Shown here in pieces: positions 1-5,615 of a stretch of 5,615 nucleotides of DNA. The DNA lies in the IMG/VR virus record IMGVR_UViG_2700989509_000032; one strand, given 5' to 3'. The notes under the pieces were generated by a model that worked only from the letters and a program-made list of their open reading frames with translations, was not told where the DNA came from and made no database searches. Source of the stretch: a virus. Lineage: Duplodnaviria > Heunggongvirae > Uroviricota > Caudoviricetes. Position numbers and translations under genes: made by a program. The first letter of the stretch is position 1, and each line of letters starts with the position of its first letter.

Positions 1-655
<655 letters not shown>

Positions 656-663
<8 letters not shown>

Positions 664-880
664 GGTGCACCTCCTGCACATCAGCCATGATAATTTTTCC
701 GGCCTTATCCAGTGCCTGATCGGCTTTTAGCTGCACAAATGCTAAATAATGGGAGATGCATTCTGATTCTCTGGCTGCGTGTTTATGCGCCACACCAGCG
801 ATAGCAGAAATCTCAATAAGTGAATCCATCAGCGTTTTGATAGCGTCTACCGCTGCATCAGGCCATGTTGCATTACACAT
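656..880 (-). CDS. Hypothetical small protein, 74 aa, middle gene of the overlapping operon
   Basis: ATG at 878-880 with AGGAGGTG 5 nt upstream. Start overlaps the stop of the upstream gene (ATGTGTAA) and its own stop overlaps the start of the downstream gene (ATGCATAA). No family recognised. Confidence 0.6.
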
Positions 881-1076
881 GTTCCACCTCCTGGCGAATA
901 CGGGCGGCGAATACCATCACGCAGCCATCAGGAGATTGCTGGCGTGCTTCCTGTTCGCTGGTGGCCTCGATGTGAATTACGCGCGGTTGTGCCGTGCTCA
1001 GGGCGATAAAACGCCAGATGTATTTATTCAGGTTGTGCGAGTCCCGCCCTTGCGGGTGTGTGGTATGATTTCTCAT
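873..1076 (-). CDS. DUF987-like small protein (YeeT/YpjJ-like), 67 aa, first gene of the operon
   Basis: Track ORF 873..1271, trimmed to the internal ATG at 1074-1076 (GAGG 5 nt upstream) because the N-terminal extension is junk-like and would run through the operator region. MRNHTTHP...KYIW...GCVMVFAARIRQE resembles recalled DUF987 proteins (MRIHQQHP...KYRW...GVLAVFAERRKD). Confidence 0.5.
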   Translation of the reverse strand: MRNHTTHPQGRDSHNLNKYIWRFIALSTAQPRVIHIEATSEQEARQQSPDGCVMVFAARIRQEVEHV

Positions 1077-1171
1077 AGCTACCTCGATACTCTTGCTATC
1101 GTTGGTGGTTAGACGCCCTGCATGTGTGCCACCACTGCGGGGCGTTGTCGTTTCTGCACCTTGCATCAACA

Positions 1172-1227
1172 AGGTGTTGAACACCAATTTAAGCCCAGGT
1201 GTTAAACACGTCAAGTGTTGAACACTT
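1172..1227. promoter_or_regulatory. Three palindromic operator-like sites (GGTGTT-N-AACACC type) in the divergent intergenic region, overlapping a candidate promoter for the 1275 gene
   Basis: AGGTGTTGAACACCA at 1172-1186, AGGTGTTAAACACG at 1197-1210 and the perfect palindrome AAGTGTTGAACACTT at 1213-1227. A TTGAAC -35-like hexamer inside site 3 (1218-1223) and a CATACT -10-like hexamer at 1239-1244 lie upstream of the ATG at 1275. Confidence 0.45.
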
Positions 1228-2179
1228 ATTTTTTTCCTGCATACTGCATTTGTTTTTTGTAAGGGGTACACAACATGGCGACAAAAGCAGTAAACGCAAA
1301 ATCACAAACAGTTGCGGCAAGGGTTCCGCATGAAGTTATGAACAATGTTGAGGCGGTAAAAATGCCTGGTGAAAGTACAGGGCAGTTTGTAACAGCAGCA
1401 TTAAAGCGAGAAGTTGAATACCGCCAGCGCCGCAAGGCCAAAGAACAGGAGTAACCATCACCAGCGCCGTGGTGTGAGGAACTACGGTGCATTGTTTTAC
1501 AGGGCTGCGCCATGACCAACAAAGAATCAACCAATACACCATCACCGGCACGGAAAAGACAGCGCAGAAAGATAGCGTACGAGCATGAGTCAAACAGATT
1601 CGCGCCCTGTGCGTTTATCCTTGAGAAATTCCTTAAAGAGTACAGGCGCACAAAAATGGGGTCGCATACCTGGAAAACATCGCGGCATGGCAATGTTAAA
1701 GAGCAGGAATAGCCCACCAGCAAGCCAGCATATTCACCATAATGACCCTCAGTTAAACATAGAGTCATTGGTGCAAAGCTGACACATTGCCCACCAGCCG
1801 CAAATCTGGCATTGTTGGCGATGCGTTCAAGTATGTAGCTTTCCCACTGGCGGCCCTCTGCGGTCGCCTTTGTTTTATCCAGAACGAAATCAGACATCAG
1901 ATTGATCAGCACCTGGCGACCTGACAAAATCGCATCAGTCGCGCCACCAGCAAAATTTTTTGCTTTCCGGACAGTGTGACCAACGACATTTTGCAGCAAA
2001 ATATTCTGCATTTCTGGCGTGCTGTAGTAACGGTGATCAGCGCCTTCACTCTGTGCGACCACAACGCTATAATCTGCCTCGTAGACAGTAAGCAATATGG
2101 CGCAGTAGGCTATTCGTTCACAAAGGCGCTCCGGCAACGGGGCGCTTTCTCTTTTTGTAACGGTCAGAGCGTTACACAT
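1226..2179 (-). CDS. Hypothetical protein translationally coupled to the antirepressor-like gene; only the N-terminal ~150 codons look coding, true 3' end uncertain
   Basis: ATG at 2177-2179 with GGAGG 9 nt upstream, overlapping the stop of the 2172..2972 gene (ATGTGTAA). The first 140 codons have 51 G-initial codons (36%); after about plus coordinate 1750 the frame becomes T1-rich and Cys-rich (antisense-like) but stays open to 1226, running antisense through the 1275..1454 gene. Confidence 0.35.
   Translation of the reverse strand: MCNALTVTKRESAPLPERLCERIAYCAILLTVYEADYSVVVAQSEGADHRYYSTPEMQNILLQNVVGHTVRKAKNFAGGATDAILSGRQVLINLMSDFVLDKTKATAEGRQWESYILERIANNARFAAGGQCVSFAPMTLCLTEGHYGEYAGLLVGYSCSLTLPCRDVFQVCDPIFVRLYSLRNFSRINAQGANLFDSCSYAIFLRCLFRAGDGVLVDSLLVMAQPCKTMHRSSSHHGAGDGYSCSLALRRWRYSTSRFNAAVTNCPVLSPGIFTASTLFITSCGTLAATVCDFAFTAFVAMLCTPYKKQMQYAGKK
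1275..1454 (+). CDS. Small ribbon-helix-helix-like DNA-binding protein, 59 aa (putative regulator or antitoxin-like)
   Basis: ATG at 1275 with AAGGGG 8 nt upstream; translation MATKAVNAKSQTVAARVPHEVMNNVEAVKMPGESTGQFVTAALKREVEYRQRRKAKEQE; TAA at 1452-1454. 26 of 59 codons start with G (coding signature), no Cys, basic C-terminal helix. Below the track length cutoff. Conflicts with the antisense long ORF 1226..2179. Confidence 0.5.
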   Translation: MATKAVNAKSQTVAARVPHEVMNNVEAVKMPGESTGQFVTAALKREVEYRQRRKAKEQE

Positions 2180-2972
2180 GGCTGTTTTCCTCCATGCGAC
2201 GGGCTAACCAACGCTGCGAAAGACGAATTAATTCAGCCTTCCGCTGGTGGTAGTCCTGGCCTAACTCAATCAGCGTGATATTGCTCTGCTCAAGGTAAGA
2301 AAGGTGCTCAAGCTGCAACGTGCTCATGTGGTCGCGTGGTTCGCCTGTAATGCCGTTCGCCAGTGCCCACTGTTTTGCAGTCATGCCACCCAGCACGATA
2401 CGCGCCAGCATGTTCGCTTCCGTGGTGTAGTGGTGCTGGAGTGTGTTTTTACCCAGTTCAGCCCGGTACGCCTCCAGCGCGGCACACATTGGCTTAAAGT
2501 AGCTGGCAACTGTGATACGGGCTTTCAGTTCCCGGCGTAACGCTGCGGAACGAACAGGCGCAACCTTGTGTAGCTCCTCCTCGCATTTGATAAAGTACTG
2601 GCGAACGGCGCGGCCCTGTTCGGTACGTTCGACCATCGCCAGTTCTTTCGCCATGTTCACTGTGATGATGTACTCAAGAGCGGTTTGCTGGCGAGATTTT
2701 GCGCTCACCGGATCGGGTCGGCTCAAATATTCAACAACCTCATAATCCACGCCTTCCGTGAACCCGTATTCTTCAATGCGCCCCTTGATCCACGAACGGA
2801 AAACGCGCCCTACACCTAACGCCTTATGTAACGCTCTGGCGCTAACAATAGTGGTTTCACTCCCGCCAATAACGCCGGAAATAATCGGGATAATTTCGCC
2901 GAAATTTTGCAGATTCTGGTTTTCAGGCCGAACGAAGCCCCGCCCCTGTACGGGCGTTTTTGGAAATTTCAT
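2172..2972 (-). CDS. Phage antirepressor-like protein (AntA/Rha-type N-terminal domain), 266 aa
   Basis: ATG at 2970-2972 with AGGAG 5 nt upstream. N-terminal region ...ARALHKALGVGRVFRSWIKGRIEEYGFTEGVDYEVV... and ...ITVNMAKELAMVERTEQGRAVRQYFIKCEEEL carry the recalled signature of antirepressor (AntA/Rha/Bro-N-like) domains. Family call is from memory. Confidence 0.75.
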   Translation of the reverse strand: MKFPKTPVQGRGFVRPENQNLQNFGEIIPIISGVIGGSETTIVSARALHKALGVGRVFRSWIKGRIEEYGFTEGVDYEVVEYLSRPDPVSAKSRQQTALEYIITVNMAKELAMVERTEQGRAVRQYFIKCEEELHKVAPVRSAALRRELKARITVASYFKPMCAALEAYRAELGKNTLQHHYTTEANMLARIVLGGMTAKQWALANGITGEPRDHMSTLQLEHLSYLEQSNITLIELGQDYHQRKAELIRLSQRWLARRMEENSHV

Positions 2973-3023
2973 AAAAACTCCTGCTATCGAATTAAGTTAC
3001 TTTTATTTGCTGGTGGATAGCTG

Positions 3024-3038
3024 GGGGCAATAGCCCCG
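3024..3038. other. Short GC stem-loop (GGGGC-AATA-GCCCC) in the alpA/antirepressor intergenic gap
   Basis: 5-bp perfect stem with a 4-nt loop, but no adjacent U-run on either strand, so not a canonical intrinsic terminator. Confidence 0.25.
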
Positions 3039-3049
3039 TAGCCATTTAA

Positions 3050-3247
3050 TCAGGTAGCTGTTCCGCGTGATTCCGCAATACGCTGATTAATCCACTCGTC
3101 AATTTCACTCTCAACGAAAGCAATAGCTCGCGAGCCAATTTTAACTGATGCAGGAAATTTACCTTGCCCCATAAGGCGATAAATCCATGCCTTGCTATAT
3201 CCAGTTCTACGCTGAACTTCTGTTAAACGAATAAGCGTATTTGACAT
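3050..3247 (-). CDS. alpA: AlpA/Vis-family prophage transcriptional regulator / excisionase-like HTH protein, 65 aa
   Basis: ATG at 3245-3247 with GAGG 7 nt upstream. MSNTLIRLTEVQRRTGYSKAWIYRLMGQGKFPASVKIGSRAIAFVESEIDEWINQRIAESRGTAT carries the AlpA-family hallmark E-x-EIDEW-x-x-QR and an HTH (TGYSKAWIYRLM). Confidence 0.9.
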   Translation of the reverse strand: MSNTLIRLTEVQRRTGYSKAWIYRLMGQGKFPASVKIGSRAIAFVESEIDEWINQRIAESRGTAT

Positions 3248-3315
3248 ATATTTACCTCATAACGTCTACTCAATTTGACGAGGTAATCATGGCACAGAAA
3301 TAACGAATATTTTCA

Positions 3316-3460
3316 TACCCTCAGGCCTAATGGTTACCGGAAGGAAATCTACCCTAAGGGTGATGGTAATCGGGAGGAAATCTACCCTAAGGGTGATGGT
3401 AAAATTGACGGGGAAGATAAAAAAATACCCTCAGGGTAACAGTAAATCACCCTCAGGGTA
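3316..3460. promoter_or_regulatory. Cluster of four complete and one partial ACCCT-N-AGGGT palindromes upstream of alpA; candidate operator or iteron array
   Basis: ACCCTAAGGGT at 3351-3361 and 3383-3393, TACCCTCAGGGTA at 3426-3438, ACCCTCAGGGT at 3449-3459, plus half-site TACCCTCAGG at 3316-3325. All lie in the 227-bp gap between the alpA start (3247) and the stop of the 3475..4272 gene. Confidence 0.5.
3339..3402. repeat. Tandem direct repeat, 2 x 32 bp, each unit containing an ACCCTAAGGGT palindrome
   Basis: 3339-3370 GGAAGGAAATCTACCCTAAGGGTGATGGTAAT and 3371-3402 CGGGAGGAAATCTACCCTAAGGGTGATGGTAA are near-identical head-to-tail copies. Confidence 0.85.
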
Positions 3461-3474
3461 TGCGGTATGGTGCG

Positions 3475-4272
3475 TTAATCCGGCTTTGCGTTCTTTTGGC
3501 TGTTGTCTCGGTTAATAGGGCAGGCAGTCCTCTCTATGAGCGTTGCAAGTGCATTACTTGCCCCCCACTGCTTAAGCTCCCTGGTTATCGCTTCTTGATT
3601 TCCCCTGGTGGCAAAATCATTTTCTGGATCGTAATTGGCCCACTCTCTGTTTCTAATCTCAATAGCCTTAGCTAATGGGTCTTTATCCCAGTATTTATAT
3701 AAGTGTATCGGGCGCTCTTGCTCTAACTGCTCTATCCTTGCCCTTAACTCTGCGTTTTCTTTTTCCAGCATTGCGATTTGGGATAATAAATCATCCTCTG
3801 TACGCAACTCTTTCTTTTCAATATCGCGTCCTTGTGCCTCGTCATTTTCAGAAGAGTTAGCGCCTTCCAGCTTCGTTAACGCGTCAAGGACATCGGGAAA
3901 AATTGAGAAAATTTCACCCCTTATAAATCCAATGTTCTCAAATTCGGGATCTTCCCAATAACCGGACACCAGAAAACCATTTTCATCCCTCTCACCAGGT
4001 AAACAACCACGTTTCCGAACCGCATTCAGATTTCTATAAAGAACATCATTATCAAATTCATCCCGATACGGGTTACAAAAAGATTCCAACAGCTTAAATT
4101 CATTTACTGTGTACAGGCGGATATGTTCTCCGCTTATTCTCCTGAGTATCCAAGTTATGACATCTGAAACATCATAATCATCACCAGCGACCTTAAGCAC
4201 GACCTCAAGAAATTCACGTAAAGAAATAAAATCTTTTTTGTATTCGTTTAATTCGGCATGAATATCAATCAT
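3475..4272 (-). CDS. Hypothetical protein, 265 aa, low-GC orphan gene between integrase and alpA; acidic with a central coiled-coil segment
   Basis: Track ORF 3475..4278 begins with GTG; the ATG two codons in (4270-4272) is preferred because GAGG lies 7 nt upstream (MIDIHAELNEYKKDF...). Sampled 60-bp blocks are about 33-40% GC against about 55-60% in int and the antirepressor gene. Coiled-coil-like LLSQIAMLEKENAELRARIEQLEQERP and an acidic linker. No family recognised. Confidence 0.7.
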   Translation of the reverse strand: MIDIHAELNEYKKDFISLREFLEVVLKVAGDDYDVSDVITWILRRISGEHIRLYTVNEFKLLESFCNPYRDEFDNDVLYRNLNAVRKRGCLPGERDENGFLVSGYWEDPEFENIGFIRGEIFSIFPDVLDALTKLEGANSSENDEAQGRDIEKKELRTEDDLLSQIAMLEKENAELRARIEQLEQERPIHLYKYWDKDPLAKAIEIRNREWANYDPENDFATRGNQEAITRELKQWGASNALATLIERTACPINRDNSQKNAKPD

Positions 4273-4400
4273 ACGCACACCTCAGCGTCCTCTACTGTAG
4301 TGGCTGTACCAGTCCGTCGAGGTGTACGGATTTTCGGGAGCGACCCTAGACACAGCCTTTTCTTTCGTCGCTCAAAGTCTACTACTGTATACTCAACCAG

Positions 4401-5615
4401 TCACCCGCATTTTCCGAACTCACCATGCACCACATTTCCGCCATGCTCGAGCGAATCCATATAATCAGCGTACCACTGAAGCATTTCCCGCCGCCCATCC
4501 AGATATTGCGCATGGTTGTATGTGCCACGAATTGAGTTTTTATCGACGTGCGCAAGCTGTGTCTCTATCCACGCGGTGTTATAGCCCTGCTCATGCAAAA
4601 TGGTGCTCATAGTGTGCCGGAAGCCATGACCAGTAACCTTTCCGTTATAGCCGATGCGTTTAAATACTTGGTTTATGCTAGCCTCGCTCATTGTTTTCCT
4701 TGGATCATTACGGCCGGGAAACATAAGCGGATAATTGCCAGTTAGTTCTTTAATCTGCCCAATAAGCGAAAGAGCCTGCTCAGACAAAGGCACTACATGA
4801 GGGCGACGCATTTTCATCCGTGAAGCAGGTATCTCCCAGATAGCCTTGTTGAGATCGATTTCATCCCATAATGCACCGCGCAGTTCGCCAGTCCGCAAAC
4901 CGGTGATAATCAGTAAACGAGCCGCCATAACAACCAATGCACTTCCTGAGTAACTGGACAATGCCTTGAAAAAATCAGGTAATTCTTTGGCTGTGAGGAA
5001 AGGATAATGATTAGATTCATGACCTTGCATCGCGCTGGTGAGATCCGGTGCAGGGTTATACTCAGCACGTCCAGTGACAATTGCATAGCGGAAAACTTCC
5101 CCACATCGCTGCCTCACTTTTTTGGCTTTTTCGGTAGCACCGCGCCCCTCGATGCGCCGCAGCACATTCAGCAGTTCAAGTGGTTTGATTTCGGCGATTG
5201 GTTTTTTGCCAATGTAAGGGAACACATCTTTGTTGAAGGCTTCGAGGATGTCTGAAGCATAACCAGCAGACCATTTTTTTAATTTGCTGCTGTGCCACTC
5301 AAGGGCAATATCTTTGAAGGTGTTGTTTAACTGCGTTTCCCGGGCAATCTTTTCCTCTCGTTTCGCTTCCATCGGATCGATACCCCCAGCGATACCCCTT
5401 TTAGCTTCTTCACGTTTTGCACGAGCATCAGCCAAGGTAACTTCAGGATACACACCTAGTGCTAACAGCTTCTCTTTACCAGCTACACGATACTTGAAGC
5501 GCCAATATTTTCCTCCACTAGGTTTTACCAAGAGATACAGACCACCACCATCAGCCAGCTTGTAAGCCTTCTCTTTTGGCTTGGCAGTGTCTATTTGACG
5601 GGCATTGAGTTTCAC
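4401..5615 (-). CDS. int: P4-type tyrosine recombinase (integrase), 404 codons in window; N-terminus at the window edge and possibly incomplete
   Basis: N-terminal KPKEKAYKLADGGGLYLLVKPSGGKYWRFKYR is the hallmark of the P4-integrase arm-binding domain. Catalytic-domain motifs are present: HxxR (GHGFRHTMSTIL) and the tyrosine region (RGTYNHAQY). First in-window codon is GTG at 5613-5615, so the true start may be just outside. Confidence 0.9.
   Translation of the reverse strand: MKLNARQIDTAKPKEKAYKLADGGGLYLLVKPSGGKYWRFKYRVAGKEKLLALGVYPEVTLADARAKREEAKRGIAGGIDPMEAKREEKIARETQLNNTFKDIALEWHSSKLKKWSAGYASDILEAFNKDVFPYIGKKPIAEIKPLELLNVLRRIEGRGATEKAKKVRQRCGEVFRYAIVTGRAEYNPAPDLTSAMQGHESNHYPFLTAKELPDFFKALSSYSGSALVVMAARLLIITGLRTGELRGALWDEIDLNKAIWEIPASRMKMRRPHVVPLSEQALSLIGQIKELTGNYPLMFPGRNDPRKTMSEASINQVFKRIGYNGKVTGHGFRHTMSTILHEQGYNTAWIETQLAHVDKNSIRGTYNHAQYLDGRREMLQWYADYMDSLEHGGNVVHGEFGKCG

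Follow-up and report, generated by a model that had tools for sequence, protein, structure and literature searches.

The stretch examined here, referred to below as the window, is the whole of the 5,615-nucleotide IMG/VR record IMGVR_UViG_2700989509_000032, which is filed as a virus of the Caudoviricetes. Its right-hand part, positions 2172-5615, holds four genes, all on the minus strand and reading from the right edge inward: an integrase gene (int), a gene that we call the slot gene, a regulator gene (alpA) and a gene for an AntA-type protein (antA). A first-pass annotation had placed the genes in this order, which is borne out, and had taken them for a satellite or phage-inducible island rather than a complete prophage. 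The genes, and the features of the interval between int and alpA, are the following.

4401-5615, minus strand: int, P4-type tyrosine integrase of 404 amino acids (PF13356 Arm-DNA-bind_3, 3.6e-29; PF22022, 1.3e-34; PF00589, 4.2e-26)
4289-4356, minus strand: int-alpA RNA (RF02996), 45.5 bits (gathering score 35.8; E 2.9e-7) over model positions 1-71 of 71
3475-4272, minus strand: slot gene (the 'orphan' of the first-pass annotation), 265 amino acids from ATG 4272, in the open reading frame (ORF) 3475-4278
3426-3460, minus strand: terminator-like hairpin immediately behind the slot gene, formed in RNA by pairing of the two distal palindromes, with T7 behind it
3318-3460, unstranded: array of five ACCCTNAGGGT palindromes between the slot-gene stop and the alpA ATG
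3352-3360, 3385-3393, 3428-3436 and 3450-3458, unstranded: exact CCCTNAGGG sites, four copies
3318-3326, unstranded: degenerate palindrome, one copy
3253-3285, minus strand: alpA-leader hairpin, whose 3′ arm contains the ribosome-binding GAGG
3050-3247, minus strand: alpA, 65 amino acids, AlpA-family helix-turn-helix (HTH) regulator or excision factor (PF05930, 2.4e-19)
2172-2972, minus strand: antA, 266 amino acids, AntA/Bro-network protein (PF08346, 2.5e-23; PHROG 'anti-repressor Ant', 2e-41)

The int product combines the arm-binding, central and catalytic domains of P4-type integrases as recognized by Pfam. The word 'antirepressor' for the antA product is a domain name and its function is putative; against PADLOC the protein gives a weak match only, to the candidate PDC-S22 (2.9e-9). 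In agreement with the first-pass annotation, no protein encoded in the 5.6-kb window matches a structural or lysis family in Pfam, PHROG or NCBIfam. ARAGORN finds no tRNA in the window. This accords with expectation, as the window reaches no further than the int start codon; the attachment site (att), too, is not readable from the window itself. Taken together with the full-length copies described below, positions 2172-5615 are very probably the end that serves integration and control in a Gram-negative phage-inducible chromosomal island (PICI) that sits at thrW next to proA, a reading that includes a working model for the cassette between int and alpA.

The site of insertion is visible in complete genomes. 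Window positions 196-5615 are 100% identical to a locus (L001) of Escherichia coli N1420, except for 88 bp that are absent from the window, and at least 80% of the window is present in 101 of 5,426 complete genomes. In N1420, tRNA-Thr (thrW) lies 166 bp beyond the int start and is followed by proA, as anticipated by the first-pass annotation, which had placed a tRNA or att site just past position 5615. A stretch comprising the 5′ end of int and its upstream sequence, as far as the first 6 bases of the tRNA 3′ end, recurs ∼14.57 kb away, and the island is bounded by this direct repeat, which contains the core GATAATAGGA, giving a size of ∼14.58 kb. At the far repeat the island meets a neighbouring vat/MarR island, in which only an integrase fragment is left; GATAATAGGA is present at both junctions, at the tRNA-Thr 3′ end and at the far end. 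For the related island EcCIMP1, the excised circle has been sequenced and gives a core att of TCCTATTATC at the same thrW/proA site (Pick, Stadel & Raivio 2025, PMC11773190); GATAATAGGA is its reverse complement. All 34 fetched loci with the same int allele (95-100% identical) and with their upstream sequence covered have tRNA-Thr(CGT), or its 3′ fragment plus the core in tandem arrays, at the same distance, four other loci being without upstream sequence. The integrase encoded at 4401-5615 is thus specific for the 3′ end of tRNA-Thr(CGT), thrW.

Read from the integration side, the N1420 island carries int, the slot gene, alpA, antA, two plus-strand genes, an Icd-like gene and small genes, and next a DUF4222 gene followed by a gene for a 601-residue D5_N/DUF5906/Pox_D5 primase-helicase (PHROG DNA primase, 1e-152). 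Four CTGTCTACCAAC(T)GTCTAC iterons stand directly 3′ of the primase-helicase gene (L001 12314-12646), and this block is the probable replication origin of the island. The late part encodes ProQ/FinO, PerC, five hypothetical proteins, a 175-residue protein and two terminal cargo genes. The first 42 residues of the 175-residue protein resemble the HTH of the small terminase TerS (weak, 4e-6), and no similar solved structure was found by sequence for this region. The cargo slot of N1420 is filled by two unannotated genes (phrog_13337 and phrog_8999). In E. coli O104:H4 C227-11 the 3′ cargo slot of the same backbone (L003 1-1447) holds PARIS (AriA 5e-43, AriB 3e-13), so that the first-pass expectation of anti-phage cargo on islands of this kind holds for a relative of the element. 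Other relatives have different surroundings. One in E. coli A3176 (L004 13153-17064), with an integrase 67% identical, abuts cas5e of a type I-E CRISPR-Cas locus, where insertion of the island may have interrupted the cas operon or displaced part of it, the stretch giving no view of the upstream cas genes. Relatives in Citrobacter braakii (L009 1-5873) and in C227-11 (L003 14663-16698) adjoin phage baseplate or tail genes or a second integrase, neighbourhoods that recall the helper-embedded or tandem arrangements described for PICIs.

The features by which Gram-negative PICIs are recognized are found in the window and in its full-length copy. The integrase lies at one end with a same-strand AlpA regulator; a dedicated primase-replicase followed by an iteron origin is present in the N1420 copy, outside the window; the att site is specific and flanked by direct repeats; and the size falls within ∼10-15 kb. 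Virion and lysis genes are missing from the window, and Pfam and PHROG find none in the whole 14.6-kb att-bounded N1420 island, which likewise has no head, tail, terminase or lysis genes of a complete prophage. The order of its zones, Integration, Bro, Replication and Late, is that of the four-zone layout of Gram-negative PICIs (PMC10111431), with antA as the first gene of the Bro zone as conceived there, and in size, in att behaviour and in having no virion genes the element agrees with these islands as first defined (PMC6092414). No phage record among 50,697 was matched at megablast level. An island rather than a complete prophage, as first proposed, is therefore what the att-bounded copy without virion or lysis genes supports; a full set of phage structural genes in the flanks, or the lack of an att site or tRNA beside int, was looked for on the near-identical full-length copies, and neither was encountered.

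The closest characterized relative is EcCIMP1 of E. coli MP1 (NZ_CP139039), which occupies the same tRNA-Thr site, flanked by proA and yagU and next to the same vat/MarR island, and whose AlpA is required for island excision and transfer (PMC11773190). Its integrase (IntS_1) is 97%, its AlpA 81% and its AntA ('antirepressor') 58% identical to those of the window; it shares an Icd-like gene, DUF4222 and PerC, and its int and alpA likewise point inward on one strand. EcCIMP1 is, however, 20 kb long, as against 14.6 kb for the island of the window in its full copy. Its int and alpA have no gene between them, and both the CCCTNAGGG sites and the int-alpA RNA are missing. It carries P22-like ejection proteins, C4/isrK RNAs, a second alpA and a primase of the TOPRIM/DUF927 type, whereas the window's island has the D5_N/DUF5906 primase, ProQ and other late-zone genes. 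As the replication and late zones differ, the two are mosaic siblings and not the same element, and the element described here is a previously undescribed thrW PICI of known type, related to EcCIMP1. EcCICFT073 and other E. coli PICIs (Fillol-Salom et al. 2018, PMC6092414) have the same unidirectional int, alpA and pri-rep genes with the origin after pri, a size of ∼10-15 kb and no lysis or tail genes, and their AlpA is a helper-induced activator (PMC6092414). They differ in that the reporter design in EcCICFT073 suggests an alpA directly after int, and in that the thrW island has no recognizable capsid or Rpp/TerS-type packaging gene.

Several points weigh against the assignment as a PICI. 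Only three of the five SatelliteFinder core components of PICIs are recognizable in the full copy (int, alpA and pri-rep), a count that the SatelliteFinder rules place in 'Type C' (PMC10085698) and that also fits other islands built of int, alpA and primase (PMC10085698). Pfam and PHROG reveal no capsid-morphogenesis gene and no Rpp or clear small-terminase gene in the full island, bar the weak TerS-like HTH. Excision, induction, packaging and helper dependence of the window's element would follow by analogy with EcCIMP1. Moreover, the copy in the window may be defective or disabled. Positions 1-195 belong not to the island but to the terminal part of an IS3-family insertion sequence (IS), 100% identical to ends found elsewhere in E. 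coli, with a minus-strand transposase start at ∼123 and an Rfam isrC match at 5-127. Island sequence begins at 196, inside a small gene that is a homologue of WP_001204082.1. The 88 bp missing near window 382-392 (L001 15198-15274), relative to all best-matching copies, fuse two small genes of two PHROG families in front of the replication module into a 171-residue ORF (166-681) that runs into the IS. The junction at 195 occurs in no complete E. coli genome, and none of these genomes covers at least 80% of window 1-700. That the copy in the source genome is a decaying, immobile remnant and not a working satellite is accordingly a serious possibility, to which we give somewhat less than an even chance: the IS and the deletion favour it, whereas all four genes, from int to antA, are intact and match those of intact islands at 100% identity, and the window ends before the far side of the IS, where the remainder of the island may lie. 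In any case, a remnant would concern the condition of this one copy and not the type of element.

One part of the element that is not shared with EcCIMP1 is the interval between int and alpA, with the slot gene. Its most likely start is ATG 4272, with a ribosome-binding GAGG at 4280-4283. The product has no match in Pfam, PHROG, PADLOC or NCBIfam, yet the label 'orphan' does not hold, as the gene belongs to a family that forms 31 clusters at 90% identity, found in E. coli, Salmonella and Citrobacter. When 1.84 billion representatives are searched with a profile, 94 slot-family proteins are obtained at the 50% identity level; many of these match in the C-terminal 100 residues only, behind unrelated N-termini, and none has a Pfam domain. 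With the C-terminal domain alone as the query, only 4 proteins are recovered. The viral and metagenome collections gave matches to the family, and the genome-contig scan gave none. The protein has an acidic, variable N-terminal domain (charge -16), then a linker that is disordered and a coiled coil, and closes with a small, conserved helical domain at the C-terminus that ends in ACPI-x-R. In the AlphaFold2 model (predicted local distance difference test score, pLDDT, 71) the N-terminal domain is folded, the acidic linker is disordered, residues 161-188 form a long helix and the C-terminal domain is small and helical. The coiled coil, at ∼161-188, is counted in the 267-residue numbering from GTG 4278; structure searches gave no significant match. 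Across the family the N-terminal parts fall into 5 groups that BLAST does not link, whereas the C-terminal parts form a single group.

In 66 loci retrieved with the slot protein from genomes, IMG/VR and metagenomes, the order int, slot family, alpA is invariant, although the integrases are 42-100% identical and use tRNA-Thr, tRNA-Gly, tRNA-Arg or tRNA-Leu. In these 66 loci, and in the 30 alpA-upstream regions with a strong match to the C-terminal domain that are described below, this domain occurs only directly upstream of alpA. When loci are instead fetched through AlpA, the int-alpA interval is 1.0-1.5 kb long and always holds a same-strand gene, drawn from at least nine unrelated families, two of which are DUF6387. 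The slot gene of this sub-lineage is one of these at least nine alternative cassettes and not random cargo.

Between the slot gene and alpA lies the palindrome array. The centres of the five sites are 75, 109, 142, 185 and 207 bp upstream of the alpA ATG, and the spacings from the alpA-proximal site outward (34, 33, 43 and 22 bp) are near multiples of 11, that is, about 2, 3 or 4 helical turns. The four exact copies compare with an expectation of 0.06, and there is no further copy elsewhere in the 35.5 kb of the N1420 locus. The proximal palindrome abuts a conserved TATGAA/TATAAA, read by eye only as the likely -10 element of the alpA promoter, and the palindromes are candidate operators of that promoter. 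A 33-bp unit with one palindrome (window 3330-3395; also in L003, L043 and others) is repeated in tandem with a copy number that varies between strains, so that the slot-to-alpA intergenic region measures 194, 227 or 260 bp and contains 4 to 6 sites. In distant relatives the sites stand at about -75, -108, -152 and -174, with C-terminal domains 39-54% and AlpA 70-82% identical, and the sequence has otherwise diverged.

The occurrence of the palindromes follows that of the slot-family C-terminal domain. A further 80 loci were fetched via AlpA alone, and their 66 unique alpA-upstream regions were classified by the match to this domain, with the following result.

Strong match (E < 1e-30): 30 regions, of which 30 contain at least one exact palindrome
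Weak match: 9 regions, of which 0 contain an exact palindrome
No match: 27 regions, of which 0 contain an exact palindrome

Exact palindromes are thus present in 30/30 regions with a strong match and in 0/36 without one (Fisher 2e-19, a value that ignores linkage and ancestry). Loci with the cassette and loci without it can encode identical AlpA proteins (L135 as against L136 and L137; L145 and L143 as against L147), and in two E. coli loci (L011 and L012) an AlpA 97% identical to that of the window goes with a different slot protein and no palindromes. Other proteins of the island were considered as binders of the palindromes. AlpA was rejected, as identical AlpA occurs with and without them; Int was rejected, as they persist with integrases 42-100% identical; and AntA was rejected, as they persist where no AntA homologue is detected. 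All three are therefore poor candidates. A role as arm sites of attP was also discarded, the array being ∼2.3 kb from the core. Other cassettes have paired palindromes or inverted repeats of their own, 75-200 bp upstream of alpA (L102, L104, L141, L107 and L126). The pairs are ∼21 bp apart at about -75 to -110, as with CCGCAATTGCGG twice or TTTGCATGCAG twice, and the accompanying proteins are unrelated, two being DUF6387.

The match to the RNA motif of the interval, RF02996, is full length and above the gathering score. It starts 45 nt beyond the int stop, and 16 nt separate its end from the slot ATG. The motif is in the same position in 6/6 relatives with the slot family and is absent from EcCIMP1, L011 and CP4-57. 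Rfam types RF02996 as a candidate small RNA (sRNA), whereas here it stands directly before the protein-coding gene of one family. Because its position is kept with the slot family and it is missing where the gene is missing, the comparison suggests that the motif is a cis-acting leader of the slot gene and not a free-standing sRNA. Further structure is predicted downstream, where the RNA of 3240-3480 folds with -67.3 kcal/mol (z = -3.3). The alpA-leader hairpin can pair in 89% of cells across 14 relatives, and covariation in the alignment of these relatives is not above shuffled controls. In L011 and L068 this hairpin is kept with different arm sequences and a shifted register. No sigma-70-like promoter was detected between int and alpA, which is compatible with co-transcription of int and the slot gene and with an activator-dependent alpA promoter.

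From these features, and from the published relatives EcCIMP1, EcCICFT073 and PICMI115, a mechanism may be envisaged. As in the relatives, Int and the slot protein would be made at a low constitutive level until a helper phage switches on the alpA promoter; AlpA would then boost its own expression and, with Int, excise the island at the GATAATAGGA core of tRNA-Thr, whereupon the primase-helicase would replicate the island from the iterons and the DNA would be packaged in helper virions. The slot protein, for its part, would dimerize via the coiled coil and bind the phased ACCCTNAGGGT sites via the C-terminal domain, ACCCTGAGGGT being the DNA target conceived for the dimer of this domain. It would thereby gate the expression of alpA, and the variable acidic N-terminal domain would set what relieves or triggers the gating. 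That the slot protein is a cassette-encoded gate acting on the alpA promoter through the phased palindromes is possible, with the chances somewhat against it, as far as can be judged from comparison of sequences. In the best explanation, each cassette brings its own protein together with its own repeats over the alpA promoter, and palindromes of their own are indeed seen in several of the other cassettes.

Extended to this clade of enterobacterial PICIs, this leads to a tentative proposal to which we give distinctly less than even confidence, namely that the 1-1.5-kb int-alpA interval is an exchangeable specificity cassette, in which a regulator with one part that binds DNA and a variable part that acts as sensor is joined to operators of its own over the alpA promoter. 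In the window these would be the coiled coil and C-terminal domain acting on five phased ACCCTNAGGGT sites, preceded by the RF02996 leader. Such a cassette would be a gatekeeper that chooses the helper, resembling in function only the Stl repressor of Staphylococcus aureus pathogenicity islands. The likeness to Stl is by analogy and consists in a regulator beside int with a conserved DNA-binding part and a variable helper-recognizing part; Stl, however, is divergent from the genes that it represses and has a recognizable HTH, whereas the putative slot system is co-directional and its candidate fold is unmatched.

Four observations weigh against a slot protein that gates alpA. The slot gene and the palindromes are physically adjacent, so that their co-occurrence is explicable by plain linkage; EcCIMP1 is helper-inducible without any slot gene (PMC11773190); the hairpin formed by the two distal palindromes resembles an intrinsic terminator; and the C-terminal domain has a net charge of 0 and no match to a known DNA-binding fold.

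The slot gene may alternatively be accessory cargo, for example with an anti-phage or anti-defence function, placed in the known 5′ accessory hotspot of PICIs, in which case the palindromes would be its terminator together with alpA promoter elements for another factor. Immune systems of PICIs have been reported at their 5′ or 3′ ends (PMC11364771), and accessory genes between int and the regulator (PMC10085698). The at least nine unrelated families that fill the slot and the fall in GC content to 0.39-0.41 across the gene would suit cargo, as would the two distal palindromes with their T7 tract, which look like a terminator. DNA-mimic proteins are strongly acidic, and the N-terminal domain of the slot protein is so too. 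Against cargo, however, the slot protein has no PADLOC match, and its C-terminal domain, conserved behind a variable N-terminus, is only ever found directly upstream of alpA in the 66 loci and the 30 strong-match regions. The palindrome sequence and its distance to the alpA ATG are kept at 40% protein identity, which points to a sequence-specific binder, and the U-tract that completes the terminator is absent in several relatives. On balance we regard cargo as unlikely.

A smaller probability still attaches to the slot protein as an excision cofactor, made with Int and needed with AlpA for the excision complex, in the manner of the IOLG/ICG proteins of the PICMIs (phage-inducible chromosomal minimalist islands) of the Vibrionaceae. 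Excision of PICMI115 depends on the gene that lies between its int and alpA, which is essential for it, and across PICMIs this place is taken by 13 unrelated families of unknown function (PMC10803314). The slot gene resembles these genes in lying on the same strand right after int, in having no detected promoter of its own and in being replaced by many unrelated families. The likeness does not extend further, since in PICMIs iolg usually overlaps int, the islands are ∼6 kb long and their helpers are virulent, no operator array or RNA leader is described for them (PMC10803314), and the slot protein has no sequence similarity to IOLG. The palindromes, moreover, are ∼2.3 kb from the att core and not in the arms of attP, and EcCIMP1, with an integrase 97% identical, excises without a slot gene, all of which makes a cofactor quite improbable.

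Hardly credible, finally, is a P4-like satellite, a CP4-57-type cryptic element or the end of an ordinary prophage: P4 has in common with the island an integrase (42% identical), a Vis-like AlpA (37%), an alpha-like helicase half (49%) and a tRNA-type att, but psu, delta, sid, epsilon, cII, gop and beta are absent from the island by tblastn of all P4 proteins and by Pfam/PHROG, and no C4, isrK or c4-a1b1 immunity RNA matches the window at E up to 0.1, whereas C4/isrK RNAs are found in EcCIMP1 and three relatives; the order int, gene, alpA recalls intA-yfjH-alpA of CP4-57, an element with a tmRNA-type att to which the first-pass annotation had likened the locus, but that likeness is distant (Int 38%, AlpA 33% identical) and fails for the att site, which is thrW and not ssrA; and the end of a prophage is at odds with the lack of virion and lysis genes and of any match to a phage record. 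YfjH itself was rejected as a homologue of the slot protein (hhalign probability 0.4%, opposite strand).

The remainder of the window, to the left of antA, contains the following features.

2123-2148, unstranded: GC-rich hairpin of 11 bp, 24 bp beyond the antA stop
1512-1712, plus strand: small gene left of antA
1275-1454, plus strand: small YlcI/YnfO-family gene left of antA
873-1271, minus strand: Icd-like gene, followed further left by small conserved hypothetical genes

The hairpin at 2123-2148 is probably the terminator of antA and would also end a possible short plus-strand transcript. On the plus strand of 2045-2160, a promoter-like TTCACT-17-TATAAT (10/12 matches) is followed ∼50 nt on by the 11-bp GC-rich hairpin and a T-run, which could represent a short RNA of ∼75 nt antisense to the region just past antA or, alternatively, a bidirectional antA terminator; the candidate RNA has no Rfam match. 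The Icd-like gene, which begins at ∼1271 on the minus strand, and the YlcI/YnfO-family gene, which begins at 1275 on the plus strand, stand back-to-back with overlapping starts (1226-1290), an arrangement typical of a divergent regulatory switch before the replication module. No C4/isrK immunity RNA is found at this site, whereas such RNAs are present at the equivalent place in EcCIMP1 and the three relatives. A minus-strand ORF of 317 residues (1226-2179) was rejected as spurious, as it has no family matches, overlaps two PHROG-supported plus-strand genes and is unannotated in RefSeq.

As first noted, the finding is routine, adding one more PICI-type satellite at a known site and a close relative of an element characterized in 2025. 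Islands of this kind nevertheless matter as carriers of defence and virulence genes: the O104:H4 copy bears PARIS, and PerC-type regulators affect the expression of the locus of enterocyte effacement (LEE) in EcCIMP1 (PMC11773190). The only part of the element that could be new biology is the slot cassette, with its RNA leader, two-part protein and operator array, in which an unannotated protein family, an Rfam motif that has been described and left unexplained, and phased palindromes form one cassette that swaps independently of AlpA. The founding paper on Gram-negative PICIs called it 'unclear' whether such islands have a repressor (PMC6092414), and the slot cassette offers a lead on how a helper turns on alpA in them. 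If the proposal is true, the cassette would supply the repressor or gatekeeper so far missing from Gram-negative PICIs, on which it depends what helper phage can activate such an island.

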